Source of the DNA: an uncultured Acidobacteriota bacterium
Lineage (GTDB): Bacteria; Acidobacteriota; UBA6911
Length of the DNA: 64,000 bases
Reading direction: 5' to 3'
Assembly: GCA_963827655.1 (NCBI GenBank)
Contig: CAWHCF010000006.1
Span: forward strand, 192,001-256,000
The position numbers and the translations under genes are program-made. Each line of letters starts with the position of its first letter. The first letter of the stretch is position 1. Shown piece by piece: positions 7,336 to 55,488 of this stretch. Below the pieces are notes generated by a model that saw only the letters and a program-made list of their open reading frames with translations, was not told the DNA's origin and did no database searches.

Positions 7336-7442
7336 AGGTTGTCACCGCATTAATTCCTGGATTGCCGGGTCGATACGATCCACGGTCAATTGTGACAGGC
7401 ACTCGACGGCGAGCTTATGCAACCGAAGCGATCTCAGTGTTT

Positions 7443-7511
7443 CTTTGTGTCTTCGTGTCTTGGTGGTTAATGCTGACAAACCAATACCACTAGGACACGA
7501 AGACCCGAAGA
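7443..7511. repeat. Inverted pair of 8-mer tandem arrays
   Basis: CTTTGTGT-CTTCGTGT-CTTGGTGG-TT ... ACCAC-TAGGACAC-GAAGACCC-GAAG. Confidence 0.7.
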
Positions 7512-7522
7512 TCCGCAATCGA

Positions 7523-13593: not shown

Positions 13594-14559
13594 ATGAAAA
13601 ACATTCGCGTTGCCGCGGTTCAGTACGAGCACGCCCCCAGCGACAAGAGCGCGAACCTGGAAAAAATCCGCCAATTTGTCGCCCAGGCCGCCCGCCATAA
13701 AGTCGAGATTATTTCTTTTCCGGAATGTTGCATCACGGGGTACTGGCACCTGCGCCACCTCACGCGAGAGCAGCTGGCGGATGTGGCCGAGCCCGTCTTT
13801 GACGGTCCTTCGTCGCAGGCGCTGATGTCGCTGGCCCGGGAGTACCGGATGACGATAGGCGCCGGCCTGATCGAAATCACGAAAGAGGGCAATTTTCACA
13901 ATGCGTACGTCGTGGCCATGCCCGATGGAAACCAGCACTGTCACCGGAAGATTCACGCCTTCGTCAGCCAATACCTGACCTCAGGCTCCGACTACACGGT
14001 CTTTGATTCACCGCACGAGTGCCGGCTGGGCGTGCTGACCTGTTACGACAACAATATCGGCGAGAATGTTCGCATCACAGCCCTGAAGGGAACCGAGATA
14101 CTTCTGGCGCCGCATCAGACCGGCGGATGCAGATCAAATAATCCCAATACCATGGGATTGGTCGATCGCGCCTTGTGGGACAATCGTCACAATAACCCGC
14201 AAGCAATCGAAGAAGAGCTCCGCGGGCCCAAGGGACGCGGCTGGCTGATGCGTTGGCTTCCGACTCGCGCCCATGACAACGGTATCTTTCTGATTTTCAG
14301 CAATGGTGTGGGGGTTGACGATGACGAGATCCGCACGGGAAATTCGATGATCATCGACCCGTACGGGCGCGTCCTGGCCGAGACCTGCAAAGCCGGCGAT
14401 GACATCGTCATCGCCGATCTCGATGCTTCGCTGCTCGATCAGAGCACAGGCAGGAGGTGGATCAAGACTCGCCGTCCTGAGCTGTATCATCCCTTGACCA
14501 CGCCGACAGGGCTCGAGCGCGATACCCGTTCGGTTCGGTTCGACAAAAAAGGAATCTGA
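13594..14559 (+). CDS. Nitrilase/carbon-nitrogen hydrolase family protein
   Basis: FPECCITGY, HRKIH, LTCYD (E-K-C triad). Confidence 0.9.
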   Translation: MKNIRVAAVQYEHAPSDKSANLEKIRQFVAQAARHKVEIISFPECCITGYWHLRHLTREQLADVAEPVFDGPSSQALMSLAREYRMTIGAGLIEITKEGNFHNAYVVAMPDGNQHCHRKIHAFVSQYLTSGSDYTVFDSPHECRLGVLTCYDNNIGENVRITALKGTEILLAPHQTGGCRSNNPNTMGLVDRALWDNRHNNPQAIEEELRGPKGRGWLMRWLPTRAHDNGIFLIFSNGVGVDDDEIRTGNSMIIDPYGRVLAETCKAGDDIVIADLDASLLDQSTGRRWIKTRRPELYHPLTTPTGLERDTRSVRFDKKGI

Positions 14560-14560
14560 C

Positions 14561-14594
14561 GATTGCGGATTTCGGATTGCGGATTGCGGATTGG
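14561..14594 (+). repeat. 7-mer tandem array (GATTGCG/GATTTCG)x5
   Basis: Read directly, immediately after the nitrilase stop. Confidence 0.9.
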
Positions 14595-14804
14595 AAGAAC
14601 GTGGGACACTGGAGTTCCAACCGAAATGATCCGCAGTCTGGAATCGTTGTGGCCTTCGTAAACAGCGCGGGTCGCCAAGTCGATTCATCCGCAATCGGAT
14701 GGATCGAGACTCGCCGGCCCGGGGCGACTGATTGCGGATTGAATTGACTTGTGCGAGCGCGCCGTTTCTCGGATGTCATAACCAATTGCCGATTTCCGAT
14801 TAAC

Positions 14805-15158
14805 TCATTTCCGCGATCGCGCCGTCTTTAAAGAAGCGACAACCAGAGAGAGGATTTCGTTGGACTCCTTCAACAGCCCAGCGATCGTGCCTGGCTTCAC
14901 ACGCCCCGTGCCAATGAGGAGTTCCATCCAGTAGATGGATTCATCGCATTCCTCTTCAACGACTCCCATCCTGGCAATAAACTCTGCGCGAGATCTGGCC
15001 CGGCACGCCGATCGGTAGTTGGCACCCACCGAAGTTCCGGCTCTGAGCAGCTGTCTATAAAGAACATCTCCGACTTCCAATCTCGGCATCAATTCAACAA
15101 ACTGAATGATTCTGATCGCAAATCTCTTGGTGCGCTCCTTGAAATCTTCTGCATTCAT
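14805..15158 (-). CDS. Four-helix-bundle protein (23S rRNA IVS / TIGR02436 / bAvd-like family)
   Basis: FKERTKRFAIRII...RQLLRAGTSVGANYRSACRARSRAEFIARMGVVEEECDESIYWMELL. Confidence 0.92.
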   Translation of the reverse strand: MNAEDFKERTKRFAIRIIQFVELMPRLEVGDVLYRQLLRAGTSVGANYRSACRARSRAEFIARMGVVEEECDESIYWMELLIGTGRVKPGTIAGLLKESNEILSLVVASLKTARSRK

Positions 15159-15200
15159 GAAGCATCTAACTGGTTAGCCGGCAGAAATGCCAACTATTTT

Positions 15201-15227
15201 CAATCTGCAATCCGCAATCCGCAATCG
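15201..15227 (-). repeat. 7-mer tandem array (CAATCCG)x4, inverse of 14561-14594
   Basis: CAATCTG CAATCCG CAATCCG CAATCG. Confidence 0.9.
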
Positions 15228-15231
15228 AATG

Positions 15232-16530
15232 CTACCAATCCACGACTGAGCCGTCGTCGGCGTCGTACGATTCCTGATTGCGCCAGTCATGGCCGATCTT
15301 GTCGGCCATGGCAGCGTCGTCGAGCTCGATACCAAGCCCCGGACCCTTGGGCAATTCTACGTAGCCATTTTTCACCACGAAAGGATTCTTGATATAGCCT
15401 TCGCCCAGGCTTACCTGCTCCTGGCAAAGGAAGTTGGGAATCGAAGCGGCAATTTGAATGCCCGCGGCCAGCGAAATCGGACCGAGTGGATTGTGGGGCG
15501 CCATGGCAGCGTAGTATGCCTCCGCCATTCCCGCAATGAGGCGCACTTCGGTGATGCCCCCTGCGTGACACAGGTCGGGTTGCAGTATCGTGGCCGCTCC
15601 TTTCTCCAGAATCTCGCGAAATCCCCATTTCGTGAAGATCCGCTCGCCGGTCGCGATCGGCAGGTGGGTTCCCCGCGCAATGTCGGCCATGGCCTCGACG
15701 TTCTGGCAGTTGACCGGCTCTTCGATGAACATCGGCTGGTAAGGCTCGAGAACCTTGATGAGCAGCTTGGCTGTTTGCGGGGGGATCGCCCCGTGGAAAT
15801 CGATGCCGATATCGGCCTCCGGACCAGCGGCGTCGCGCAGTCCGGCAAACTCCTTCGCCACGTAGTCGACAAAGGCCTTGTTCTCGACTATGCGAGACGG
15901 GCGTCGCTTGGCGGGGCCTGTCTTGAACGCAGTGAATCCCTGGGCCATGCGCTCCTTGATTTGCTGGGGCGTGCGCGCGTGCGCATAGACTCGTATCTTA
16001 TCGCGCGTGGGGCCGCCGAGAAGCTCGTAAATCGGAACCCCGAGCGCCTTCCCTTTGATGTCCCACAGGGCCTGATCGATTCCACTGAGCGCGCTGGTCA
16101 ATATCGGCCCGCCGCGATAGAAAGCGTGGCGGTAAATTGCCTGCCAGTGATGGGCCACGGCTCGTGGATCCTTTCCGATCAGGTACGGCTCTGTCTCCTT
16201 TACCGCCTGTGCGCAAGTCAGCGCTCGTCCCTCGGTGATCGGCTCTCCCAGTCCGGTGATTCCGGCATTGGTGTGAATCTTCAAGAAGAGCCACCTGGGT
16301 TTCACCAGGAATGTCTCCAGCTTGGTAATTTTGATGCTTTCTTTGACCGAGGCGCGCTTCTCCGCAGGGGCAGCCGGAGAAGGTTGTTGAACGGCCGGAG
16401 CGCGTCCCGCGTTCTGTGCCGCAAGGCTCGTAGCACCGACGATCGCCGCCGTGCTCGTCAGCAAAGACCGGCGTTGAATACCCTTTGAGTTGATCGAGTC
16501 TTTTTCCAAGATAGTTCCCCCTTTTCCCAT
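15232..16530 (-). CDS. dgoD: Galactonate dehydratase-like enolase-superfamily enzyme with N-terminal twin-arginine extension
   Basis: KPRWLFLKIHT, FYRGGPILTSALSGIDQALWDIKGK, DFHG, FIEEP, TGER, APHNPLGP; QRRSLL leader; alternative TTG start at 16509. Confidence 0.85.
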   Translation of the reverse strand: MGKGGTILEKDSINSKGIQRRSLLTSTAAIVGATSLAAQNAGRAPAVQQPSPAAPAEKRASVKESIKITKLETFLVKPRWLFLKIHTNAGITGLGEPITEGRALTCAQAVKETEPYLIGKDPRAVAHHWQAIYRHAFYRGGPILTSALSGIDQALWDIKGKALGVPIYELLGGPTRDKIRVYAHARTPQQIKERMAQGFTAFKTGPAKRRPSRIVENKAFVDYVAKEFAGLRDAAGPEADIGIDFHGAIPPQTAKLLIKVLEPYQPMFIEEPVNCQNVEAMADIARGTHLPIATGERIFTKWGFREILEKGAATILQPDLCHAGGITEVRLIAGMAEAYYAAMAPHNPLGPISLAAGIQIAASIPNFLCQEQVSLGEGYIKNPFVVKNGYVELPKGPGLGIELDDAAMADKIGHDWRNQESYDADDGSVVDW

Positions 16531-16786
16531 TGCCGATTCGCGTCTTCGTGGTCGATCGTGGCAGCTACGCGCTTCCCGATGACCCCATAAACATCCACGG
16601 ATGCGGGCAGATATCTCACTTGGTTCGAACAACCTTACTCTACAAGTTGTTTGCCGCCAAGCAGGGAAAAACGAGTAGAATGATGATTCGCGTTGTTTGC
16701 ATTTTTCGTAAATCCCAGACGGCATGCGAATCATTTCGCTGGAGGCCAGCGGCCGGCCGCTTTTCTGACTGTAAGGTGAAAAACTT

Positions 16787-20476: not shown

Positions 20477-20570
20477 AGAAAGTAGAAAGTAGAAAGTGCT
20501 GAGTAGAAAGTATCAAGAGCGTAGGCTCAGAAGTTTTTACTCAGCACTTTGGACTTTAAACTTTCTACTG
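20477..20570. repeat. Inverted pair of 7-mer arrays (AGAAAGT / ACTTTCT type)
   Basis: AGAAAGT x3, GCTGAGT, AGAAAGT ... ACTCAGC ACTTTGG ACTTTAA ACTTTCT. Confidence 0.8.
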
Positions 20571-36596: not shown

Positions 36597-36713
36597 ACGA
36601 TTGACGATTTACGATTGACGATTGACGATTGACGATTGACGATTGAAAAAAAGCTCGGCGGCTAATCGCCCAGCTGTTTTTCAATCGTCAATCGTAAATC
36701 GTAAATCGTCAAT
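36597..36713. repeat. Inverted 7-mer arrays forming a ~115-bp hairpin
   Basis: (ACGATTG)x7, self-complementary spacer, then (CAATCGT/AAATCGT)x4. Confidence 0.9.
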
Positions 36714-41862: not shown

Positions 41863-42942
41863 TTATTGCCGGCTGACCAGAACCAGGCCGGTAACGATGA
41901 TGTTGAGCACCGATAACGGCAGCAGCATTTTCCAGCCCAGATGCATGAGCTGGTCGTAGCGGAAGCGCGGAAGAGTCCAGCGGATAAGAAGCAAGAACCA
42001 GCAGAAGAAAACCACCTTGGCCCCGAACGAGGCAACCTGCAAGAGGACGACAACCGGATGCGAGAGACTCCAATGGGAGTCCCAGGGGAAGTAAAAACCG
42101 TCAGTCTGCAAGTAGGGGACCTGCCAGCCCCCGAAAAAAAGAGTGGCCGTCAGGGCCGCAACCAGGACCGTCTCGATGAAATCGGTCATGAAGAACGCGC
42201 CAAACTTCATGCTGCTGTATTCCACGAAATAGCCGATGATCTCGGACTCCCCCTCGGGCAGATCAAACGGCACGCGTTTCGTCTCGGCGATTCCAGCCAC
42301 TAAAAACAACACGAATCCCAGAGGCTGAAGCACGATTCCCCATTTCGGAAGCCATCCCCACAGCAGTTCCCCTTGCTGCCGATTCAACTGCGCCAGGTCC
42401 AGAGTTCCAAAAATCATCAGCAGGCCGACCAGCGTGGCCCCCATCGTGATTTCGTAACTGATCATCTGACTGGACGCGCGCAAGCCGCCGAGGAAGGCAA
42501 ACTTGTTATTCGAGGAGAAGCCGGCCAGAAAGCTGCCGTAGACGCCCATCGACATCATCGCGAAAATGAAGAGCAACCCGACGTCCAGCGGAAGAATTTG
42601 CAGCTCGATCCTTCGCCCCGCCACCTGAATCGCGTCGCCGAACGGAATCGAGGCGAAACTCATAAGCGCAAAAAACAGCGCGATCAGGGGTGCGATCGTG
42701 TGCAGGAATTTGTCGCCTCCGGGAGGAACGAAGTCCTCTTTGAAAAACATTTTGAGAGCATCGGCGAAGATATGAAACAACCCGAAAGCCCGCAGGCCGA
42801 AAATCGGGGCGCGGTTGGCCCCGATGCGATCCTGCATTACCGCCGACTGTTTTCGCTCCATCCAGGTGAGGAGCGACGTGAGAATCAGGATCGCGTTGAT
42901 GAAGACAACCGCCTTGATGAAAATGATGACGATGTCAATCAT
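41863..42942 (-). CDS. nuoH: NADH-quinone oxidoreductase subunit H
   Basis: ERKQSAVMQDRIGANR, ADALKMFFKED, LRASSQMISYE, AETKRVPFDLPEGESE, PRFRYDQLM..GWK. Confidence 0.96.
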   Translation of the reverse strand: MIDIVIIFIKAVVFINAILILTSLLTWMERKQSAVMQDRIGANRAPIFGLRAFGLFHIFADALKMFFKEDFVPPGGDKFLHTIAPLIALFFALMSFASIPFGDAIQVAGRRIELQILPLDVGLLFIFAMMSMGVYGSFLAGFSSNNKFAFLGGLRASSQMISYEITMGATLVGLLMIFGTLDLAQLNRQQGELLWGWLPKWGIVLQPLGFVLFLVAGIAETKRVPFDLPEGESEIIGYFVEYSSMKFGAFFMTDFIETVLVAALTATLFFGGWQVPYLQTDGFYFPWDSHWSLSHPVVVLLQVASFGAKVVFFCWFLLLIRWTLPRFRYDQLMHLGWKMLLPLSVLNIIVTGLVLVSRQ

Positions 42943-42944
42943 TC

Positions 42945-43084
42945 GATTTCGGATTTCGGATTTCGGATTTCGGATTAAGAGATTCGATTGATTGGGAAGC
43001 TACCGTACGCATGGTTAACAAATCCATTGTCAAACGAACACATCCCGTTCAATCCGCAATCCGCAATCCGCAATCCGCAATCGG
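42945..43084. repeat. Inverted 7-mer arrays between nuoG and nuoH
   Basis: (GATTTCG)x4 ... (CAATCCG)x5. Confidence 0.9.
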
Positions 43085-44686
43085 CTGGCCGGCGTCTCCG
43101 ACGGTGTCATAGGTCATCCCGGCGAACGGAGGCTCGCGCTCCCCTATTTCGCGGAATATCTCTTCAGGCAGCGTCGTTTTCAACGGCACATCAAGTTCGG
43201 CGGCGAGCCGGCCAAGGATCTCGAGATCGGGAAGCGACTCTCCCAGAGGCGGCACGGCCGGCAGGATGCGCTGCACACGCCCCTCAAGATTGGTAAACGT
43301 CCCCTCTTTTTCAGCATACACAGAAGCGGGCAGCAAAACCTGCGCCATGGACGCAGTCGGGTGTTCCCACGGTCCCTGGAATGCAACGAAATCCACGTTG
43401 CCGAGGGACCTCAAGACCTCCTGGGCGTCAAACCCCGTCGTCAGGTCATGGTAAAAAATATAGACAAAATGAACTCGACCTTCAGCGCACGCGCGCAGCA
43501 GGTCGTCGCTGCCGGCTCCGCTCAACCCCAGCGCCTCGGCGCCTCGGGAGTTCGGATTCTTGTCGGCTGTGATCAAGATATCGTCGGAGTAAACCTGACG
43601 ACGAAGGGGCACACGATACTCGAGCCGGCGAATGTTAAGCCCATTCTTGAAAATCTGGCGCAGTGAATAGAGCTCTTCGTTGGTCATCTGCGGAGAAGCC
43701 AGGACCGCGACGCCGTCGGGACCATGCTTTTGTAATGTCTCGCGCAATACGGCGGCCGTCTTCTTGATTGCGTCATCCCAGGTGACTTCCTGCCACCGAT
43801 CGCCCTGGCGCAGCATGGGCGTCCTCAAGCGGTCCACCGAATCGATCGCGCGATAGGCGTATCGCCCCTCGTCGCACATCCAGTAACCGTTGACATCCTT
43901 GTTGTACCGGGGCTTCAGGCGATGAACCCGTTTGTCATGGTAGCGCGCGTTGAAGCGCTCGTTATAGTGAATCTCAGTATTGCATCCGCGGCTGCATCCC
44001 GGGCAGACCGAGTTGGTTCTGCCAAGAAACCAGACCCTGCATTGGAATCGGAAATCACGGTCGGTGAGGGCTCCGACCGGGCAAATATCTACCACGTTGC
44101 CCGAGTACGGATTGTCGAGCTGAACGCCCGGAAATAAATCGATCTCGCTGAGATGGCCGCGATCGTGCACCGCGAGTTCGCCCGTCCTGGATATCTCTCG
44201 AGTGAAACGGACGCAGCGAGTGCAGAGGATGCAGCGTTCCTGGTCCAGGATAACCGTGGGTCCAATCGGGAACGCCTTCTTGCGCTTGGTCTTGTTCTCG
44301 TTAAAACGGGGATCGTAAGCCCCGTGCTCCATATAGTAGTTCTGCAGCTCACACTCACCCGATTGATCGCACACGGGGCAATCGAGGGGATGATTAAGGA
44401 GGAGAAACTCCAGGACAGATTGCCGATTGCGGAGCGCGTCGGGTGTCTGGGTCCGGATCACCAGACCCTCCGCAACCGGAGTAGCACACGAAGGCTGAAG
44501 CTTGGGAATCTTCTCAATCTCTACCAGGCACATCCGGCAGTTCCCCACCACCGACAGACCCGGGTGGTAGCAGTAGTAGGGGATCTTGATGCCGGCCTGC
44601 CGCGCGGCTTCGATCAGAGCCGTCCCTTTAGGTGCCTGCACGGTCTGGCCGTCGATGGTCAGCGTGACCAGTTCCTTTTCCGACAC
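43049..44686 (-). CDS. nuoG: NADH-quinone oxidoreductase subunit G (short, ~545 aa form)
   Basis: CYHPGL..GNCRMCLVE, NHPLDCPVCDQSGECELQ, CILCTRCVRF, CPVGAL, CPGCSRGC, CDEGR; AGGAG before GTG 44686. Confidence 0.92.
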   Translation of the reverse strand: MSEKELVTLTIDGQTVQAPKGTALIEAARQAGIKIPYYCYHPGLSVVGNCRMCLVEIEKIPKLQPSCATPVAEGLVIRTQTPDALRNRQSVLEFLLLNHPLDCPVCDQSGECELQNYYMEHGAYDPRFNENKTKRKKAFPIGPTVILDQERCILCTRCVRFTREISRTGELAVHDRGHLSEIDLFPGVQLDNPYSGNVVDICPVGALTDRDFRFQCRVWFLGRTNSVCPGCSRGCNTEIHYNERFNARYHDKRVHRLKPRYNKDVNGYWMCDEGRYAYRAIDSVDRLRTPMLRQGDRWQEVTWDDAIKKTAAVLRETLQKHGPDGVAVLASPQMTNEELYSLRQIFKNGLNIRRLEYRVPLRRQVYSDDILITADKNPNSRGAEALGLSGAGSDDLLRACAEGRVHFVYIFYHDLTTGFDAQEVLRSLGNVDFVAFQGPWEHPTASMAQVLLPASVYAEKEGTFTNLEGRVQRILPAVPPLGESLPDLEILGRLAAELDVPLKTTLPEEIFREIGEREPPFAGMTYDTVGDAGQPIADCGLRIAD

Positions 44687-44736
44687 TATTGTGCTCCTAG
44701 GTACGGACGACCTTTTGCCGCCCTGAATCCTGAATC

Positions 44737-45249
44737 CTAGTTTTTGGGTCCGATCAGCGGCTGTCGCTTCTGAATCGGATAGTCCTTCCGTAGCGGGTGT
44801 CCTTTGAACTCTTCGTACAACAGGATGCGCTTGAGGTCGGGATGGCCGGCAAAACCAATCCCGAACATGTCCCAGACCTCCCGTTCGAGCCAGTCCGCGC
44901 AGCCCCACAGGGAAGTCACCGAATCGACCTCGGCAGCGGATTCTTCGAGCCGGATTTTGATTCGTAACCGCCGCTTGAAGGGAAGCGATACCAGGTGATA
45001 GACAACGTCAAACCGCGGTTTCCGACCCACATAGTCTACTGCCGTGAGATCGGCGAGCAGGTCAAACAGGAGCCGCGGATCATTCTTCAGAAACTCAAGG
45101 ATCTTTCTCAGCGCCCGCGGCCGAATGATGGCAGTAGCGTCCCCCTGAGGCAAAGCAATTTCGATAATGTCGTCAGGGAAGCTTTCGTTGAGCAACTGAA
45201 GCGCTTCGGCGTTTGTAGCCGACGGTCCACCGGAAGAATTGACTACCAT
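44737..45249 (-). CDS. nuoC: NADH-quinone oxidoreductase subunit C
   Basis: DLTAVDY, RFDVVYHL, WLEREVWDMFGI.F.GHPDLKRILL, GHPLRKDYP. Confidence 0.95.
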   Translation of the reverse strand: MVVNSSGGPSATNAEALQLLNESFPDDIIEIALPQGDATAIIRPRALRKILEFLKNDPRLLFDLLADLTAVDYVGRKPRFDVVYHLVSLPFKRRLRIKIRLEESAAEVDSVTSLWGCADWLEREVWDMFGIGFAGHPDLKRILLYEEFKGHPLRKDYPIQKRQPLIGPKN

Positions 45250-45593: not shown

Positions 45594-45706
45594 GGTTTCA
45601 TGAGCCTGTTTTCACAAAATGACGGATTAATTTACCACCCCCAAGACGCGAAGACACGAAGAAATGTACCCCGGCTCCTGGCGTTTTTCAGCGGTGAGAA
45701 TTGAAA

Positions 45707-47362
45707 TCACGCAAGTCGAACGACGCGCGTTTGAGAGAGCTTGTCCTGAAGGCAGTCGGAATCAGCATCAAAGAAACCCCAAATTAACCCCGCCCCCAGG
45801 CCGAGAAGCGACAGAAGGTAGACCGCGGATCGGATCAACAGTCGGACAAAAGTAGGACGACTCCCAGACTTTCCAACAACCCGGAGGTTCGTGAACATCA
45901 TTCCTATCGTCTGGTTTGCAGTCCCGAGGAAGAAGAGGGAGTATACGAGGAAGATTGCAACCACCAGCAAAGAGTAGTGGATCAAACTGCGAGAATCAGA
46001 AACAGTGATGCCCGAAACCACATCAGTCACCAGGATGAAGGCGCCCCCGCACAAGAATACAATAATCAGGTCCAACAGGCCGGAGAGAGTGCGTGACAGC
46101 AGGATGAGTTTCTCCGGACTCTCCTCATCTCTGACTTGCTCCGGCGCGATGATCTTTTCGGGCAACTCCGAGGCTTTTGTCTGAATGGCTTCGCGCGCCA
46201 TCACGCTATCGATGAGATTCTCGATCTCGCCAGGGTTAGATAGCGGAATCGACTCTCCCGCCTCTGGAGAAGCTACCCTGGCCTCGGACTCCGCCACCGG
46301 TTCCGGTTTCGAGTCGCGCGAGAGAGAAGCGGCTAGAGGCTCCGGATCTACCGGATAATGCAAGAGCGATTCTTCGGTGCCCGGCGAACCAGTTCCGGAC
46401 GCCTCGGCCTCCGCCACCGGTTCCGGTTTCGAGTCGCGCATGAGAGAGGAGGCGGCTAGAGGCTCCGGGTCTACCGGATAATGCGAGAGCGATTCTTCGG
46501 TGCCCGGCGAACCAGTTCCGGATGCCTCCGCCTCCGCCACCAGTTCTGGTTTCGAGTCGCCCATGGGAGAGGGGGCGGCTAGAGGCTCCGGGTCTACCGG
46601 ATAACGCGAGAGCGATTCTTCGGTGCCCGGTGAACCAATTCCGGATGCCTCCGCCTCCGCCACCAGTTCTGGCTTCGAGTCACCCATGGGAGAGGGGGCG
46701 GCTAGAGGAGCCGGATCTACCGGATAATGCGAGATCGGTTCTTTGGCGCCCGGTGAACCAATTCCGGATGCCTCGGCCTCCGCCACCGTTTCTGGTTTCG
46801 AGTCACCCAGCGAAGAGGGGACGGCTAGAGGAGCCGGATCTACCGGATAATGCGAGATGGATTCCTCGGTACCCGGCGAACCGACCCGGGACGCCTCGGC
46901 CTGCGCCACCGGTTCCGGCTCGGAGGACGGAGCATCGACCGGATAGGGAAGTTTGTTGGCTGATTCCGCTTGGGATGGTTGGCCGGCCTGCCCTGCCGCC
47001 TGTCGAGGCATCTTGCGCGCGATCCGCGGCCTTTGGACGGGAGGCGCCGATCGACCCTGGAGCTCGGGTTTGGGGAAGGGTAGCTTACCGAGGTTCGCCG
47101 TTTTCTCGAGCGCCTCTCTGTCTTGTTTGATCTTCTGGAGCCGCTGATTGAGTTCCAGCCTCCATTGAGGCAGCGCGTCGCCTTTCTGCGCGCGCTCGTT
47201 GATCCGCTCTGGACCGTGTTCCTCGAGGTTGTCAGCCGGGATGCGGGGTCGTTTGGAGCGAGCTAAGCCTTCAACCGGGGTCGCTGTCTGGATCTTGGTG
47301 TCACAAACCGGGCAGCTCCCCGATTCATCGAGCTCGCTCTTCCGGCACTTTGGACATTGCAC
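45707..47362 (-). CDS. RDD-family membrane protein with N-terminal zinc ribbon and long acidic/Pro-rich repeat linker
   Basis: CPKC...CPVC; WRLELNQRL; C-terminal RTLSGLLD...QTIGMMFTNLRVV...LQDKLSQTRVV. Confidence 0.82.
   Translation of the reverse strand: MQCPKCRKSELDESGSCPVCDTKIQTATPVEGLARSKRPRIPADNLEEHGPERINERAQKGDALPQWRLELNQRLQKIKQDREALEKTANLGKLPFPKPELQGRSAPPVQRPRIARKMPRQAAGQAGQPSQAESANKLPYPVDAPSSEPEPVAQAEASRVGSPGTEESISHYPVDPAPLAVPSSLGDSKPETVAEAEASGIGSPGAKEPISHYPVDPAPLAAPSPMGDSKPELVAEAEASGIGSPGTEESLSRYPVDPEPLAAPSPMGDSKPELVAEAEASGTGSPGTEESLSHYPVDPEPLAASSLMRDSKPEPVAEAEASGTGSPGTEESLLHYPVDPEPLAASLSRDSKPEPVAESEARVASPEAGESIPLSNPGEIENLIDSVMAREAIQTKASELPEKIIAPEQVRDEESPEKLILLSRTLSGLLDLIIVFLCGGAFILVTDVVSGITVSDSRSLIHYSLLVVAIFLVYSLFFLGTANQTIGMMFTNLRVVGKSGSRPTFVRLLIRSAVYLLSLLGLGAGLIWGFFDADSDCLQDKLSQTRVVRLA
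46280..46950 (-). repeat. Intragenic 123-bp (41-aa) tandem repeat, about 5.5 units
   Basis: CTACCGGATA recurs at 46348, 46471, 46594, 46717 and 46840. Confidence 0.92.
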
Positions 47363-47528
47363 GAGGCGACGAGTATAGCACAAGCGCTTGCGCCCCATCT
47401 GCTATAATTAGCCGGTACTTTGACGCGTCGCGAGTGGGTGTCAGGCCTTGAAAACTCATTTCCGGCCAGGACGCCGAGCACAGCGCCGAGAAAGTGAATT
47501 TTCAAGGCACTGGACGTCAGATCGTCTC

Positions 47529-47831
47529 ATGACATTTCGAAATCGGACCCTCATGCTGCTGTGCCTCGGAATCCTCGCCTGCGGCGCGTACGCGATCACC
47601 CGCTTTTACTCGATTGTTCTTGTGGCCTACGTGGTCGAAGAGTCATTGATTCAGAAAGCTCCCGACGGGGCGGACACCGCCCGGATTCGAGCGCGATTTC
47701 AAGGGCTCGTCGATTCGCTTCCTGACCGTCGCTCGCGGCTTCAGAGGTTGATCGAGATGTCTCAGGTTCTGGAAAAGGTCCAAGGACTTGATCCGGCTGG
47801 AATGGAGCGGCTGCTTTCGATTGACGATTGA
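47529..47831 (+). CDS. Hypothetical membrane-anchored protein
   Basis: Hydrophobic N-terminus, helical C-terminus; stop lies in a CGATTGA array. Confidence 0.55.
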   Translation: MTFRNRTLMLLCLGILACGAYAITRFYSIVLVAYVVEESLIQKAPDGADTARIRARFQGLVDSLPDRRSRLQRLIEMSQVLEKVQGLDPAGMERLLSIDD

Positions 47832-47912
47832 CGATTGCTAATCAATGTGGCAGAAGTAGACGGCCTCTCGATTGACGATTGATGAAATGGTCGATCGAAA
47901 CATTAGAATTCT

Positions 47913-49425: not shown

Positions 49426-49758
49426 GATTACTCCCCGATTCCTGCCGGCTTCGGCCTCTTGGCGGGGCTGTGGCTTGAACGCGCTTACCCCCGCCTGAGC
49501 GTGCATGACTACTAAAGGCCCTTTTCGTTGATAGCCACGCAACAAGTTTTTTGGATTCCCTCCAATTGGTTGAATTTTTCCGGTCTGAAAGAATTTCTTA
49601 ACCTTGGGTTCTTTTTTTCGTAACCGGCATGGGTAGCGTTATTAAGCCGAGCCGCAGGACGCCCCCGAACCAGGAACGTAACTTGCTTCGTGGCTTATCT
49701 TTGATCCTTGAGCGACAGCGCTGATGACGTCGAAGGAACAACCGTCAGGGAGGAACTA

Positions 49759-52734
49759 ATGAGGAATCGAAGAACGTGGGTTGCCGTACTCGTCTTTGTC
49801 GGTGTCGTGCTTGGTGCGGAAACCGGATCGTCCCAGTCTCAGATCACGACAGGAACTATTCAGGGGAGCGTTACCGACGAAACCGGGGGCGTCATCCCGG
49901 GCGCTTCGGTGACGTTGACCCACGTGGCCACCGGGGTAACTCGAACGGTCCTTGCCGACGAGCATGGGCGCTACACCGCTCCTCTCCTTGAAGTCGGCGA
50001 CTATGAAATCGCCGTCGAGGCATCGGGGTTCGGCAAGGTGGTCCAGAAGGGCTACGTTCTTGCGCTCGGTCAGACGCTGGTGGTGAACATACCGATCAAG
50101 ATAGCTGGATTGGAACAGGTGGTCACGGTAAGCGACGAGTCACCTCTGGTGGAGACGTCGAAGGCTGAAACCAGCACGCTGGTCGACCGCCGAGCCGTGG
50201 CCAATCTCCCGTTGAATGGACGCCGGTTCCTGGACCTCGCGTTTCTGACGCCGGGCGTCAGCCAGGAGCGAGAGCGCGGCCAGGTGTCGTTGGCCGGCCA
50301 GCGCGGCATCAACAGCAACGTCAACGTGGACGGCGCCGATTTCAACCAGCCGTTTTTCGGCGGCCAGCGCGGCGGGGAGCGAACGAACGATGCCTACGTG
50401 GTCAGCCAGGAAGCGATTCGGGAATTTCAGGTCGTGCGTTCCGGCTTTGCCCCGGAGTTCGGACGGTCGACGGGAGGCGTGGTAAACGTCATCACCAAAT
50501 CGGGGACCAACCTCTGGCACGGCAGCGGGTTCTATTACCTCCGCCACCGCGAGTTTGCTCCGCGCACCGTTTTTGGCGACGATGTCGCTCCCACGCGCCA
50601 GCAGTTTGGCGGAACCGCCGGAGGACCGCTGAACCGCGACCAGACCTTCTTTTTCATGGCCTACGACCAGCAGGCTCAGCATGAGGCCTTGATCGTTCGC
50701 TTCAATAACCCCGCGGGTCTTCCGGCCGATCTCCTGGCGCAACAGGGAGTGTTCAAATCCACCAACGACGTGAATACCTACCTCGTGAAGGTCGATCACC
50801 AGTGGTCCGCTGCTACCCACGTCACGGCCCGCTACAACTACAGCCGCAACAAGGCCCTGAACGGTACCTTCACCGGGAGTTACCACCGGCGTGCGTGGAG
50901 AACAACGGAATCGAGCGGGATCGCACTCACACGGGCGTGCTGAACATCAATACGGTCATTTCAGCCACCATGCTCAATGAACTGCGCGGGCAGTACTCGT
51001 ATGAAGACCGGCCCCGCATCAACAACGGCGAAGCGCTCGATTTCAATTCGCAGGTGGGCCCGCAAGTGCAGGTCAGTCGCTGCTGCTTTTTCGGCGGGGT
51101 TGCGTTCCTTCCCGTCCAGCAGAACGACGACCGCCTCCAGTTTGCCGATAACTTTTCCCTGATCCGCGGGGCGCACAATATGAAGTTCGGGTTCGATTGG
51201 AATCGCGCCCACGTGGAGCAGATTTTCCGAGGCAACTGGCGTGGGGTTTACGTCTTCAATAACGTTGCCAGCTTCGTCAATGTCCTGAACCAGGTTCCAG
51301 GCGCCGTTGCCGACCAGTTCCGGGTTTTCTTCGGCAACGGTCGATTGGATGGCGTCGCAGTACGACGTCGCTACATTCTTTCAGGATTCGTGGAAAGTAA
51401 ACCGGCGCCTGACCATGACCGCCGGGCTGCGCTACGAAGCCGCCCTGAATCCACAGCCCGTATTTCCCAATTCGCTGCTCCCGCAGACGGCCAGGATTCC
51501 GAGTGACACGAAAGAATGGCAACCACGCCTGGGTCTGAGCTGGGATATTTCCGGGAATGGCCGAACCCTGCTGCGCGCCTCGTCCGGTCTCTTCTACGCG
51601 CGCACGCCCATGCTGCTGTTGAACCAGGCTTTCAACGCCAATGGCAACCCCGATGTCGGTTCCGCGTTCACGCTCAATCCGGCTCAAATTCGACAGGCTC
51701 AGTCGGTCCATCCTGAGTTTGTCTTCCCGTTTGTGCCGGATACCTCGAGCGCTGCCAACGCGTCGTATTTCACGGCTGCGGGTATCGCCGGCTTGCGTCC
51801 CGACGCCTCGTTCTTTGACCCGGAATTCAGGAATCCGCGCAGCTTCAATTACAGCCGTAGGGCTGGAGCAATTGCTCGCGAATAATCTGGCTCTTTCCCT
51901 GGATTGGGTGCACTCGAATACCGTTTACCTCGAGCGCATCCGTGACATAAACCTGGCGCCGCCGGTCGTTGGTAGGACAACTCCACTCCGCCCGTGCTTC
52001 GCCCACGATTCAACGTCTCGCTCCGGCCGGATCCCAACTTCAATATCCTTCGCAGCCAGGAGAGCAGCGCCCGTTCCAACTACGATGCGCTGTCGCTCTC
52101 GCTGAACAAGCGGTTTGCCAGCCGATACCAGTTCCTGGGCTCCTATACTCTCGCCTATAACCGTGACGATGACTCCAATGAACGCAACTTCGCGGGTATA
52201 ACCTATGAAAACGCGTTCAATCTGATCGACGAGTACCGTTGGAGCCGAAATGACATCAGGCACCGCGGGGTGCTCAGCGGCAGTTACGACATCCCCGGGG
52301 GATTCCTGGTTTCGGGAATCGTGACCTATCGGACCGGCCTGCCGTTTACCGCTTTCACGGGTGTCGACAGCAACGGCGATTCGCAGTTTACCGACCGGCC
52401 GATTATCGCCGGAATTCCCTTGCTGCGTAACAGCTTCCGCCAGCCGAATTTCTTTAACGTCGACCTGCGGGTTTCGAAAACGTTCACCGTCAAGGAAAAC
52501 CACAAGCTGGAACTGCTCTTTGACATGTTCAACGTTACCAACCAGCGTAACTTTTTCTACCTAGTGTCGACCAACGAGAGCACGACGACGGCAACGGGAT
52601 CCGTGTGGGGGACCGATCAGACGCCGCTTCCGACCTTCCGCACTCTGCAGAATCCCGACGGCACCTACAACCGGAACACTGCGAGTGTGGCCTCGCCGTT
52701 CCAGTTGCAGGCGGCGCTGCGCTACAGTTTCTAG
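49759..52734 (+). pseudogene. TonB-dependent receptor (Oar-like) broken by 4 frameshifts (pseudogene or read errors)
   Basis: One protein across ORFs 49708, 50802, 51307, 51641 and 51994; shifts near 50885, 51345, 51855 and 51975; ends FQLQAALRYSF. Confidence 0.85.
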
Positions 52735-54494: not shown

Positions 54495-55253
54495 ATGAAA
54501 TCGAAAGCTGTGATGACTCTGGACCGGGTGCTTTCTCGCTTCGGCCTCGCTTCACGGACTGACTCGCGCGAAGCCATTCTAGGAGGGCGCCTGAAGGTAA
54601 ACGGGAAGGTCGTGCGCAATCCCGAACTCTGGGTGCGTCCGGAAAAGGACGTGATTCATCTCGACGGCAATCGCCTCAAACCAGCCCGCAAGGTCTACCT
54701 CCTTTTCTACAAACCTAAAGGAGTGATCACCAGTCATGGAGACCCCGGCGATCGCAAGACCGTTTACGACTACATTCAGGAGAAGAACGCCTGGGTTGTT
54801 CCTGTGGGGCGTCTCGATCGGGACACTTCCGGGCTGCTATTGCTGACCAACGACACCGATTTCGCCGAATTCGTTACTGCGCCTGAATCCAGGGTCCCCA
54901 AGACCTATCTTGTGAAAGTAAGTGGACTTCTCTCGGAGGAGACTTTAGCAAGCCTCAGGAGCGGGGTGAGGCTGAAAAGGGGAGATTGGGCCAAGCCTGA
55001 GAGAATTACGCGGTTGAAAGACCGAGGGAAATATACCTGGCTCGAGATTGTGCTGACCGAGGGGAAGAACCGCGAAGTCCGGCGCATGATCGAGACGGTG
55101 GGATTCAAGGCGCTCAAGCTTGTCAGGACGCGAATCGGCGCATTGACGCTGGAGAACCTCGAGGTGGGGAAGTACCGGAGAGTAACCGCCAGTGAAGTTG
55201 CTGCCCTGAAAGAGTACCGACGATCCGATTTACGATTGACGATTGACGATTGA
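54495..55253 (+). CDS. rRNA pseudouridine synthase, RsuA/RluB/E/F family
   Basis: S4 domain, YKPKGVITS, PVGRLDRDTSGLLLLTND, LTEGKNREVRRM. Confidence 0.93.
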   Translation: MKSKAVMTLDRVLSRFGLASRTDSREAILGGRLKVNGKVVRNPELWVRPEKDVIHLDGNRLKPARKVYLLFYKPKGVITSHGDPGDRKTVYDYIQEKNAWVVPVGRLDRDTSGLLLLTNDTDFAEFVTAPESRVPKTYLVKVSGLLSEETLASLRSGVRLKRGDWAKPERITRLKDRGKYTWLEIVLTEGKNREVRRMIETVGFKALKLVRTRIGALTLENLEVGKYRRVTASEVAALKEYRRSDLRLTIDD

Positions 55254-55488
55254 CGATTGGGAGTTGGTTGTCACTTGTGATTTCTGGTTGCTTCCTCGTC
55301 TGCATCTTAACGGTTGGTTTTGTTCCGCTACACTAACCACGAAGCCACGAAGTCGCAAAGACACTGAACATGCCATTCATGATGGAAGCCGTCCCCGATG
55401 AAGCGCAGTCGGCAATCGACGAACGTCGATTGTGAGTGAGGTTGTGGTACAATCACCGTCCCAATCGTAAATCGTAAATCGTAAATCG
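55226..55488. repeat. Inverted 7-mer arrays between convergent genes, enclosing an 8-mer array
   Basis: (CGATTGA)x5 at 55226-55260; (TAAATCG)x4 at 55461-55488; AACCAC-GAAGCCAC-GAAGTCGC-AAAGACAC at 55335-55364. Confidence 0.88.

Follow-up and report, generated by a model that had tools for sequence, protein, structure and literature searches.

Small proteins of the S23p family (PF05635/TIGR02436) were first seen as products of open reading frames (ORFs) of 23S rRNA intervening sequences (IVS); here we analyse a gene of this family which lies between protein genes, in a cassette bounded by inverted arrays of a heptamer, within 64,000 nt of DNA (the window) from an uncultured Acidobacteriota bacterium (UBA6911; GCA_963827655.1, CAWHCF010000006.1:192,001-256,000). 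The available part of PMC4990558 describes the IVS of Coxiella burnetii (helix 45) as 428-444 nt long, with inverted repeats forming a 28-bp stem cut by RNase III, tandem heptameric repeats (GACAGAT), variable in number, in the 5' part, and an S23p ORF, this homologue appearing to be untranslated; it also cites S23p ORFs for Leptospira, Brucella and Xanthomonas, the Xanthomonas protein being a homopentameric toroid. PF05635 is homologous to Avd, according to the available part of PMC10053308. Both links, to IVS excised by RNase III and to Avd, had been stated in a sequence-only reading of the window that preceded this analysis, and both are in print. The cassette is probably related to the ORF-bearing 23S IVS and probably works like them, and we lean towards reading it as a member of a widespread class of IVS-like hitch-hiking cassettes carried on host transcripts, in which the RNA would come from read-through, RNase III would cut the stem formed by the arms and a pentameric protein would read the repeat cores.

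In REPIN/RAYT systems a single gene is flanked by short repeats which are also found as hundreds of gene-less inverted pairs, and paralogues have different repeat families. The STRR of cyanobacteria are intergenic heptameric repeats. Rehm 2015 reported heptameric intergenic repeats of Xanthomonas (GGGAATC) and Nostoc (GGGGA(T/C)T), mostly of four units, with 70-75 convergent pairs per Xanthomonas genome, no link to insertion sequences and no known function (available part of PMC4692102); the TAACTGA arrays that MacGregor 2015 reported in Beggiatoaceae, cyanobacteria and Bacteroidetes lie mainly a short distance ahead of start codons (available part of PMC4679880). A search of open-access papers and preprints found no paper linking the gene family outside rRNA to inverted heptamer arrays, beyond the Coxiella IVS; the words 'four helix' are absent from the texts of PMC4692102 and PMC4679880, and 'intervening sequence' from that of PMC4679880.

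As far as the cited source describes the 23S IVS, the cassette shares with them the protein family, the size (428-444 nt in Coxiella, approximately 445 nt here), an ORF in the loop of a terminal inverted-repeat stem, heptamers in the 5' part and the lack of an own recombinase, and it would also ride on a host transcript. Unlike the IVS, it lies between protein genes (of a carbon-nitrogen hydrolase and of the enolase superfamily) and begins at a host stop codon, its cutting by RNase III is proposed by analogy, and the genome contains hundreds of gene-less arrays with matching units, which are undescribed for IVS. Lying outside any rRNA gene, it does not belong to the 23S IVS class. With the heptamers of Xanthomonas, Nostoc and the STRR, to the extent covered by the cited texts, it has in common the period of 7, the intergenic location, the mostly four or so units, the convergent inverted pairs and the lack of a link to insertion sequences; what sets the arrays here apart from those reported for Xanthomonas and Beggiatoaceae in the same texts is their tie to a gene family and to stop codons, together with a maximum of five cores. 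The combination of a repeat-flanked gene with many gene-less inverted pairs of the same repeats recalls REPIN/RAYT, from which the locus differs in that the flanked gene encodes a four-helix-bundle (4HB) protein (PF05635) and not an HUH (Y1) transposase, the repeats are tandem 7-mers and not unique 20-30-mers, and the gene-less loops are unrelated to each other. The 4HB fold is homologous to that of Avd of diversity-generating retroelements, going by the part of the literature cited above; unlike in such an element, there is no adjacent reverse transcriptase, and template and variable repeats were not seen.

Anatomy of the cassette

The locus was described from positions 14300-15500 of the window, the output of Tandem Repeats Finder (TRF) and the ORF list. 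The outer arrays are (GATTGCG)4.7 at 14561-14593, with five GATTG cores, and its reverse complement, (CAATCCG)3.7, at 15201-15226 (TRF); the single ORF between them, running from 15158 to 14805 on the minus strand, is the 4HB gene (14805..15158, 117 aa). The S23p/Avd-like protein matches TIGR02436 (7.6e-20, 71.2 bits against a cut-off of 24, profile positions 2-108 of 109) and PF05635 (9.2e-13, 48.8 bits against a cut-off of 33.8), and its closest solved structure is 2RLD (E 1.5e-18, residues 6-115; a single PDB entry with 5 chains). The inverted arrays on the left and right of a TIGR02436-type gene, which the sequence-only reading had pointed out, were confirmed by the sequence, TRF and the profile matches, and the degenerate nested arms that it had seen are present at 14620-14646, 14697-14712, 14729-14747 and 14783-14803.

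On the strand of the 4HB gene, the order is: the stop codon of the co-oriented upstream host gene, of the enolase superfamily (MR_MLE; 15232..16734, minus strand); 2-5 nt; the 5' arm (15201..15229, minus strand; TC-GATTGCG-GATTGCG-GATTGCA-GATTGAA on the gene strand); a 42-nt leader between arm and start codon (15159..15200, minus strand), which lacks a promoter-like site; the ORF; 1 nt; and the decayed proximal 3' arm (14803..14783, minus strand), GATTG-type, with three degenerate units. From the 5' arm to the proximal 3' arm (14785 to 15229) this core cassette measures approximately 445 nt. Two more decayed arms follow on the same strand (14747..14697; GATTG-type at 14729-14747 and CAATC-type at 14697-14712), and then a short-loop gene-less hairpin formed by a degenerate CAATC-type array (14646..14620) and the outer left array (14593..14561), the latter being well kept, unlike the decayed nested arms. 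The host gene on the other side, encoding a carbon-nitrogen hydrolase (13594..14559, plus strand; PF00795, 5.5e-45), has its stop codon 1 nt ahead of the outer left array.

In the predicted RNA fold from host stop to host stop, the 5' arm (15201-15229) and the distal array (14561-14593) pair as the terminal stem, in the minimum free energy structure as well as in the centroid (z = -5.4, 20 shuffles), in agreement with the earlier proposal of a stem around the cargo gene; the proximal 3' arm being decayed, the local stem depends on this distal array, 211 nt away. Neither a sigma-70-like promoter nor a terminator-like site was found in 14300-15500, there is no U-tract terminator at the locus, and no Rfam family reaches threshold anywhere in the window. 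Recombinases, transposases and reverse transcriptases are absent from the 42 window ORFs of at least 150 aa, and the earlier statement that the window holds no recombinase stands. A sigma-54-like motif read after the 5' arm was dropped, as its spacing does not fit.

Period-7 arms of the gene family in this genome and its relatives

The assembly (8.18 Mb, 53 contigs, 90% complete) contains 11 TIGR02436 genes (12 profile matches). TRF places a heptamer array within 75 nt of six of them, against a mean array spacing of 12.3 kb, and inverted arms, read by eye, occur on all 11 (eight of period 7, three of period 6). Each 4HB lineage in the genome has its own repeat unit: GATTGCG (the locus gene), GATTGAC, TCATTNN, AGGATNN, AGAAGYC (four near-identical copies) and the hexamers GGGAAC and GTGCAC; the gene with GATTGAC arms is the closest paralogue of the locus gene (62% identical). 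The genome-wide census of 7-mer inverted pairs and their cargo, which the sequence-only reading had proposed, was run: all 11 4HB genes lie within arms, and no second cargo family of heptamer arms was found, the small ORFs between other arrays being GcvH, PTPS, an insertion sequence fragment and a hydrolase, of which the GcvH and PTPS genes lie between two separate hairpins and not within one pair.

One lineage, AGAAGYC, has multiplied within the genome and has left internally deleted copies. Its cassette exists in four full-length copies (one intact, one without the first bases of the 5' end, two frameshifted); at least 13 more, at other loci, have lost internal sequence, in several cases from the inner edge of the 5' arm onwards; approximately 40 and 50 nt of extra conserved sequence lie outside the arms, with a GGTTAG motif at both ends. 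The shared interior and defined ends of miniature inverted-repeat transposable elements (MITE) or terminal-inverted-repeat elements were found in this family and not in the GATTG families, 130 of whose 143 loops are unique. Behind two cassettes, at C26:290696 and on contig C25, the last ~100 nt of the gene and the 3' arm are repeated in tandem once or twice; these 5'-truncated duplicates (C26:290560-291120, locus L017, and C25:44800-45650, locus L019) could reflect slippage or incomplete copying during spread. The genome has two reverse-transcriptase (RVT_1) matches, on C22 and C49, away from all 11 4HB genes, and one Y1 (HUH) transposase match, at C35, the sole array within 4 kb of which is of an unrelated GCTGAAC unit. 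Phages were considered as carriers and discarded (one of 50,697 phage records matched at E <=1e-8).

The association extends well beyond this genome. A collection of species genomes was surveyed with an alignment of the locus protein and its closest paralogue as query, which covers one subfamily, and the best 80 of 284 confirmed relatives were taken, chosen by protein similarity (49-64%) and not by repeats; by their record titles the loci belong to Verrucomicrobiota, Planctomycetota, Acidobacteriota, Ignavibacteriota, Hydrogenedentota and eight more phyla (nearly all are metagenome bins, and some phylum labels may be wrong). A period-7 array lies within 150 nt of the 4HB gene in 76 of the 80 loci and on both sides in 60, 52 of the pairs being complementary within one mismatch. 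Adjacent arrays have period 7 in 135 of 136 cases, with a length peak at 31-32 nt, while the background density of period-7 arrays more than 400 nt from the gene in the survey loci is 0.174 per kb. The tie between the gene family and inverted period-7 arms, claimed from the window, thus holds both for the genome copies and for the related loci.

Gene and arms cluster together on the protein tree across phyla: unit classes change 26 times, compared to a mean of 41 and a minimum of 35 after shuffling (quick tree, 115 columns, many forks open), and the class GAATGCG unites proteins of Verrucomicrobiota, Hydrogenedentota and Myxococcota. Close proteins on the tree can differ by one or two unit bases. 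In 27 of 63 cases a background array agrees in unit with the cassette resident in its locus, compared to a mean of 12.9 on permutation (0 of 2000 permutations reach 27), a difference which shared ancestry inflates. Near-identical cassette proteins (branch lengths 0.10 and 0.14) were observed in bins labelled Hydrogenedentota and Bathyarchaeota (L036/L037), by recent transfer or by binning error.

Of 41 genomes of the same family and class, 33 contain a TIGR02436 match, and arrays of four GATTG cores occur in 18; the gene is present in 18/18 genomes with GATTG arrays, and such an array is absent from 8/8 gene-free genomes (17/17 and 8/8 without G034, which is unpublished). The hypergeometric figure for this co-occurrence is 0.005 and ignores kinship. 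The five genomes with more than 300 array pattern matches have 11, 9, 3, 11 and 10 gene matches. One period-7 array was found in 169 kb sampled from gene-free genomes, and 24 in 181 kb surrounding TIGR02436 genes in genomes that lack GATTG arrays, where nine of the 10 genes have short-unit or longer inverted arms made of other units. With regard to filled and empty alleles, the two flanking genes are not neighbours in any of 40 relatives, none of which is of the same genus. The cassette is present in contigs assembled from three public soil or rhizosphere DNA runs of different studies; contig joints skipping ~607 nt were rejected as empty alleles, since their sides are shorter than 30 nt with foreign letters between, and they come from other GATTGCG hairpins.

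Heptamer arrays, gene-less hairpins and stop codons

With TRF thresholds of score 50 and 3 copies, the genome has 416 arrays of period 7, 16 of period 14 (double heptamers) and no more than six of any other period from 3 to 15; a looser cut gives 667 non-overlapping heptamer arrays, approximately one per 12 kb. Neighbouring arrays form 201 inverted pairs (spacer of 220 nt or less), 189 of which share one chirality; in the GATTG families, whichever strand is read, the left arm is GATTG-type and the right arm CAATC-type. Array lengths peak sharply at 32-34 nt. GATTK arrays contain three cores in 71 cases, four in 147, five in 195 and six in 8, a hard drop after five cores. Unit positions 1-5 are nearly invariant and positions 6-7 variable, in a table biased towards conservation because the arrays were selected by core; the same build of core plus two bases occurs in the TCATT, AGGAT and AGRAG families, with modal core numbers of 4-5.

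Nearly all gene-less arrays use the unit of one of the 4HB lineages: 588 of the 667 heptamer arrays differ by no more than one mismatch from the arm unit of any of five lineages (by our rough estimate, about a tenth of all unit classes would fall within one mismatch of these five units), and among hexamers the three units that occur most often belong to the hexamer-armed 4HB genes and are also present at other loci. The CAGCTGA and AGCTATC types (~40 arrays) have no cognate gene in this 90%-complete assembly and flank TIGR02436 genes in three relatives.

Among 143 gene-less loops of at least 25 nt, 130 resemble neither one another nor any cassette interior, on which grounds the reading of loops as scars of gene loss was rejected for most of them; bare arrays would therefore spread or arise without carrying a loop, and recognisable remnants of lost genes are not seen. 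The sequence-only reading had taken gene-less pairs for non-autonomous elements or post-loss scars, which is not supported in general and is supported for the AGAAGYC family, with its internally deleted gene-less derivatives; as a whole, its interpretation is partly supported. Some gene-less loops are ordinary terminators made of an A-run, a palindrome and a T-run. Five TCATTTG-armed hairpins (C18:26257, C23:227272, C46:78216, C1:88091, C36:35776) share one 58-69-nt loop, in either orientation relative to the arms, and form a small MITE-like subfamily among the unique loops. At C22:225266-236961 a hairpin occurs approximately every 2.7 kb over 11 kb, two of the loops being alike; these are probably tandem paralogous genes, each with a hairpin. 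An IS4-like transposase ORF fragment is truncated at both sides by GATTGAC arrays (C14:138688-139329, locus L023), so that a decaying insertion sequence can be a place where arrays originate or insert.

The gene-less pairs first noticed in the window are all real. The pair at 20477..20570 has AGAAAGT-type units, with (AGAAAGT)5.1 at 20477-20512 and an imperfect partner reaching ~20570. At 36597..36713 lies a hairpin of GATTGAC type, with seven units at 36597-36646, 4.7 units of the complement at 36681-36713 and a 34-nt loop consisting of an A-run, a palindrome and a T-run. The hairpin at 42945..43082 (arms 42945-42976, GATTTCG, and 43050-43082, complement of GATTGCG; one mismatch per unit) occupies the whole gap between a nuoG-like gene (43052-44908), whose ORF reads through the right arm, and a nuoH-like gene (41866-42942) of the same operon, a place where a terminator is unlikely to be tolerated. 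The pair at 55226..55488 (arms 55226-55259 and 55463-55488, 203-nt loop) lies between convergent genes, and both of its arms touch or overlap the stop codons of the neighbours. Two single short arrays, (CCTGAAT)2.4 at 44722..44738 and (CGATTGA)2.9 at 47818..47837, were found by TRF where the sequence-only reading had placed them; a third, placed near 7511, turned out to consist for the most part of a period-8 array (7494-7515), with two CAATCCG-like units behind it.

Array and hairpin blocks lie close to stop codons. Compared to a block placed anywhere in its gap, and with gene calls that are crude ORFs of at least 150 aa whose starts are less certain than their stops, blocks are separated by 5 nt or less from the gene on 103 of 278 stop-facing sides (54 expected) and on 33 of 252 start-facing sides (30.9 expected). 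In 36 of 40 survey loci, the 5' arm begins -5 to +13 nt from the stop of the co-oriented gene upstream, and the 4HB gene agrees with the strand of its neighbours in 28 of the 32 loci where both neighbours are co-oriented (two-sided binomial ~2e-5). At the junctions, the stop codon overlaps or abuts the first unit (TGA-c-GATTGCG, TA-G-ATTGAC, cGAT-TGA-C). GATTGAC arrays have TGA in all frames, which explains some of these cases; that arrays generally supply the stop codon was rejected, since it holds for GATTGAC and fails for GATTGCG, which has no stop in its unit, yet 25 of 37 of its arrays are within 5 nt of one. Solo arrays (no partner within 300 nt; a third of them have a decayed partner) show the same polarity: next to a stop, 32 read GATTG away from the gene and 3 CAATC, compared to 9 and 7 next to a start. 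Host stop codons seemed very often to be followed by C (TGA-C, TAA-C, TAG-C), at 14557-14562 and at many junctions, an uncounted impression which follows from the C preceding the first repeat unit. A stop codon followed by C is a weak termination context.

Hairpins lie between tandem genes in 113 cases, convergent genes in 40 and divergent genes in 29, compared to 3553, 1082 and 1076 baseline gene pairs; these contexts mirror the baseline, and hairpins are thus not preferentially at the ends of transcription units. The arms accordingly do not have the marks of an intrinsic terminator, given the lack of a terminator-like site in 14300-15500, the like hairpin inside the nuo operon and the match with the baseline.

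Other features of the window and the genome were recorded apart from the heptamers. A second repeat system, of period 8 and GAAGACAC-type units, occurs in the window at 7442-7515, 45643-45662 and 55337-55352, and genome-wide in 242 arrays (at least 3 copies, score of at least 34), 141 of them of one unit. A 123-nt tandem repeat (5.2 copies, 90% identity, 46281-46918) lies within an RDD-family gene (45710-47398, minus strand). An outer-membrane receptor gene (CarboxypepD_reg/OMP_b-brl_4) is split over four consecutive ORFs at 49708-52731, being either broken or affected by assembly errors.

Weighing the explanations

The cassette design is a gene for a putatively ring-forming 4HB protein within inverted arrays of at most five heptamers, each with a 5-nt conserved core and 2 variable bases. 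In the IVS-like hitch-hiker towards which we lean, the cassette would be transcribed by read-through from the enolase-family host gene, as its position and orientation suggest; the arms would form a stem of ~26-33 bp, looping out the ORF; RNase III may cut this stem, by analogy with the 23S IVS, and so separate the cassette RNA from the host message; and a presumably pentameric protein would recognise the repeated cores, one per subunit, which would explain the five-core limit and the pairing of units with paralogues. Carried further, and only tentatively, 4HB rings may be sequence-specific readers of arrays of up to five units of 'core plus 2-nt spacer', with an own unit for each paralogue and the arrays in sense behind stop codons. 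Cassettes, 23S IVS and bare arrays would then be one system, in which the ring protein would serve to maintain or spread its own family of repeats, or to regulate it.

Several observations weigh against the hitch-hiking cassette. The arms can clearly pair, ~91-93% of aligned arm positions being Watson-Crick. If they were kept for pairing in one transcript, their mismatches should lean to G.U on the sense strand, and they do not: sense and antisense counts are 30 and 26 in 55 cassettes, and 38 and 32 in 113 tandem-gene hairpins, and transversion-type mismatches (76 and 152, respectively) are commoner than G.U-compatible ones. Both arms have equal core numbers in only 51 of 140 GATTK hairpins, and the G/T variant at core position 5 is mismatched across arms in 131 unit pairs, compared to 57 matched T-T pairs; judged from these sequences, the arms seem to have changed more in the manner of two arrays that are each held to consensus than of a co-evolving helix. 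At the locus itself, the arm beside the 4HB stop codon (14783-14803) is decayed. In one metatranscriptome run, both host genes have contigs, which cannot show RNA ends, and the 4HB gene has none, a difference that speaks for neither side. The uniqueness of 130 of the 143 gene-less loops is not explained by a simple copy-and-paste cassette model, the AGAAGYC family has its extra conserved ends outside the arms and does not sit at stop codons, and the modal core number is 4, not 5, in the AGGAT and AGRAG families. The binding of the repeat by the protein is itself a prediction, and the positional counts come from crude gene calls and from related genomes, which are non-independent samples.

The mismatch pattern, with its lack of strand asymmetry and its excess of transversions, would suit arms that work as DNA, as terminal repeats or as hairpin or cruciform single-stranded DNA signals for a recombinase or transposase elsewhere, similar to the ends of REP/RAYT or IS200/IS605 elements, the 4HB gene being cargo or accessory. 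The layout of one flanked gene and hundreds of gene-less pairs fits the REPIN/RAYT scheme, the AGAAGYC lineage is multi-copy with internal deletions often starting at the inner edge of the 5' arm, and the genome does hold one Y1 (HUH) transposase and two reverse-transcriptase matches. We nevertheless regard this as rather unlikely: the enclosed gene is not of a nuclease or recombinase family, the window has no recombinase, the only array near the Y1 gene has the unrelated GCTGAAC unit, most loops are unique, so that hairpins are not copied as units, and a signal in DNA alone does not explain the starts at stop codons, the GATTG polarity (32 against 3) or the co-orientation (28 against 4). Polarity and stop codons, which solo arrays share, would suit regulatory sites on host mRNAs, read in trans by domesticated 4HB pentamers which would compete with the hairpin and set 3'-end stability or read-through, their own arms being autoregulatory. 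The TRAP ring wraps GAG repeats in a comparable manner. Such a regulon would accord with the 5-nt core and 2-nt spacer, the sharp drop after five cores, the own unit of each paralogue, the homopentameric toroid described for a homologue in the part of the literature cited above, the hairpin inside the nuo operon and the hairpin contexts, which mirror the genome baseline. It is unlikely in our view, as it depends on the predicted binding, closely related proteins can have units differing by 1-2 bases, several 4HB copies are frameshifted or truncated as in decaying selfish elements, and near-identical cassettes in different phyla look like horizontal transfer; the Coxiella homologue, moreover, appears untranslated (available part of PMC4990558).

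The tandem 5'-truncated copies of the gene 3' end and 3' arm behind the C26:290696 and C25 cassettes could be products of retro-mobility, in which the 4HB protein would work, like Avd, with a reverse transcriptase elsewhere, and arrays and truncated copies would result from cDNA synthesis with template slippage at gene 3' ends. Diversity-generating retroelements act at gene 3' ends beside a hairpin, and this genome has two reverse-transcriptase matches. The homology of the family to Avd (available part of PMC10053308) points the same way. This is very unlikely, however, there being no reverse transcriptase near any of the 11 genes or in the window and no template/variable repeat pair seen, and the truncated duplicates being possible by replication slippage at repeats as well. 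That the heptamer hairpins are generic intergenic repeats or terminators, and the small gene merely lies in a repeat-rich gap, is hardly credible: with approximately one array per 12 kb some genes would be near one by chance, but this coincidence is already contradicted by the counts, since all 11 paralogues are armed, with an own unit per lineage, 76 of the 80 loci in other phyla have an adjacent array against the background of 0.174 per kb, gene-free genomes are without GATTG arrays and the locus has no U-tract terminator. The hitch-hiking cassette and its rivals alike leave the placement of the arrays in sense orientation at stop codons unexplained.

It may be that three puzzles share one answer: what the very common, uncharacterised S23p/TIGR02436 proteins do, where the ORF-bearing 23S IVS come from, and why 7-nt tandem repeats are in excess between bacterial genes. 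The over-representation of 7-nt repeats has been noted since 1990 without an explanation; the gene-less repeats of matching unit throughout this genome tie it to one protein family, and the reading of arrays by rings, if true, would explain the STRR and the repeats of Xanthomonas and Beggiatoa. The anatomy (sense arrays at stop codons, a limit of five cores together with a presumably pentameric ring protein, one unit per paralogue) opens the question to direct tests. Should the protein read its array, repeat-binding modules would gain a new class, compact and programmable; a purely selfish cassette would be a hitch-hiker of a new kind, one which needs no recombinase of its own.

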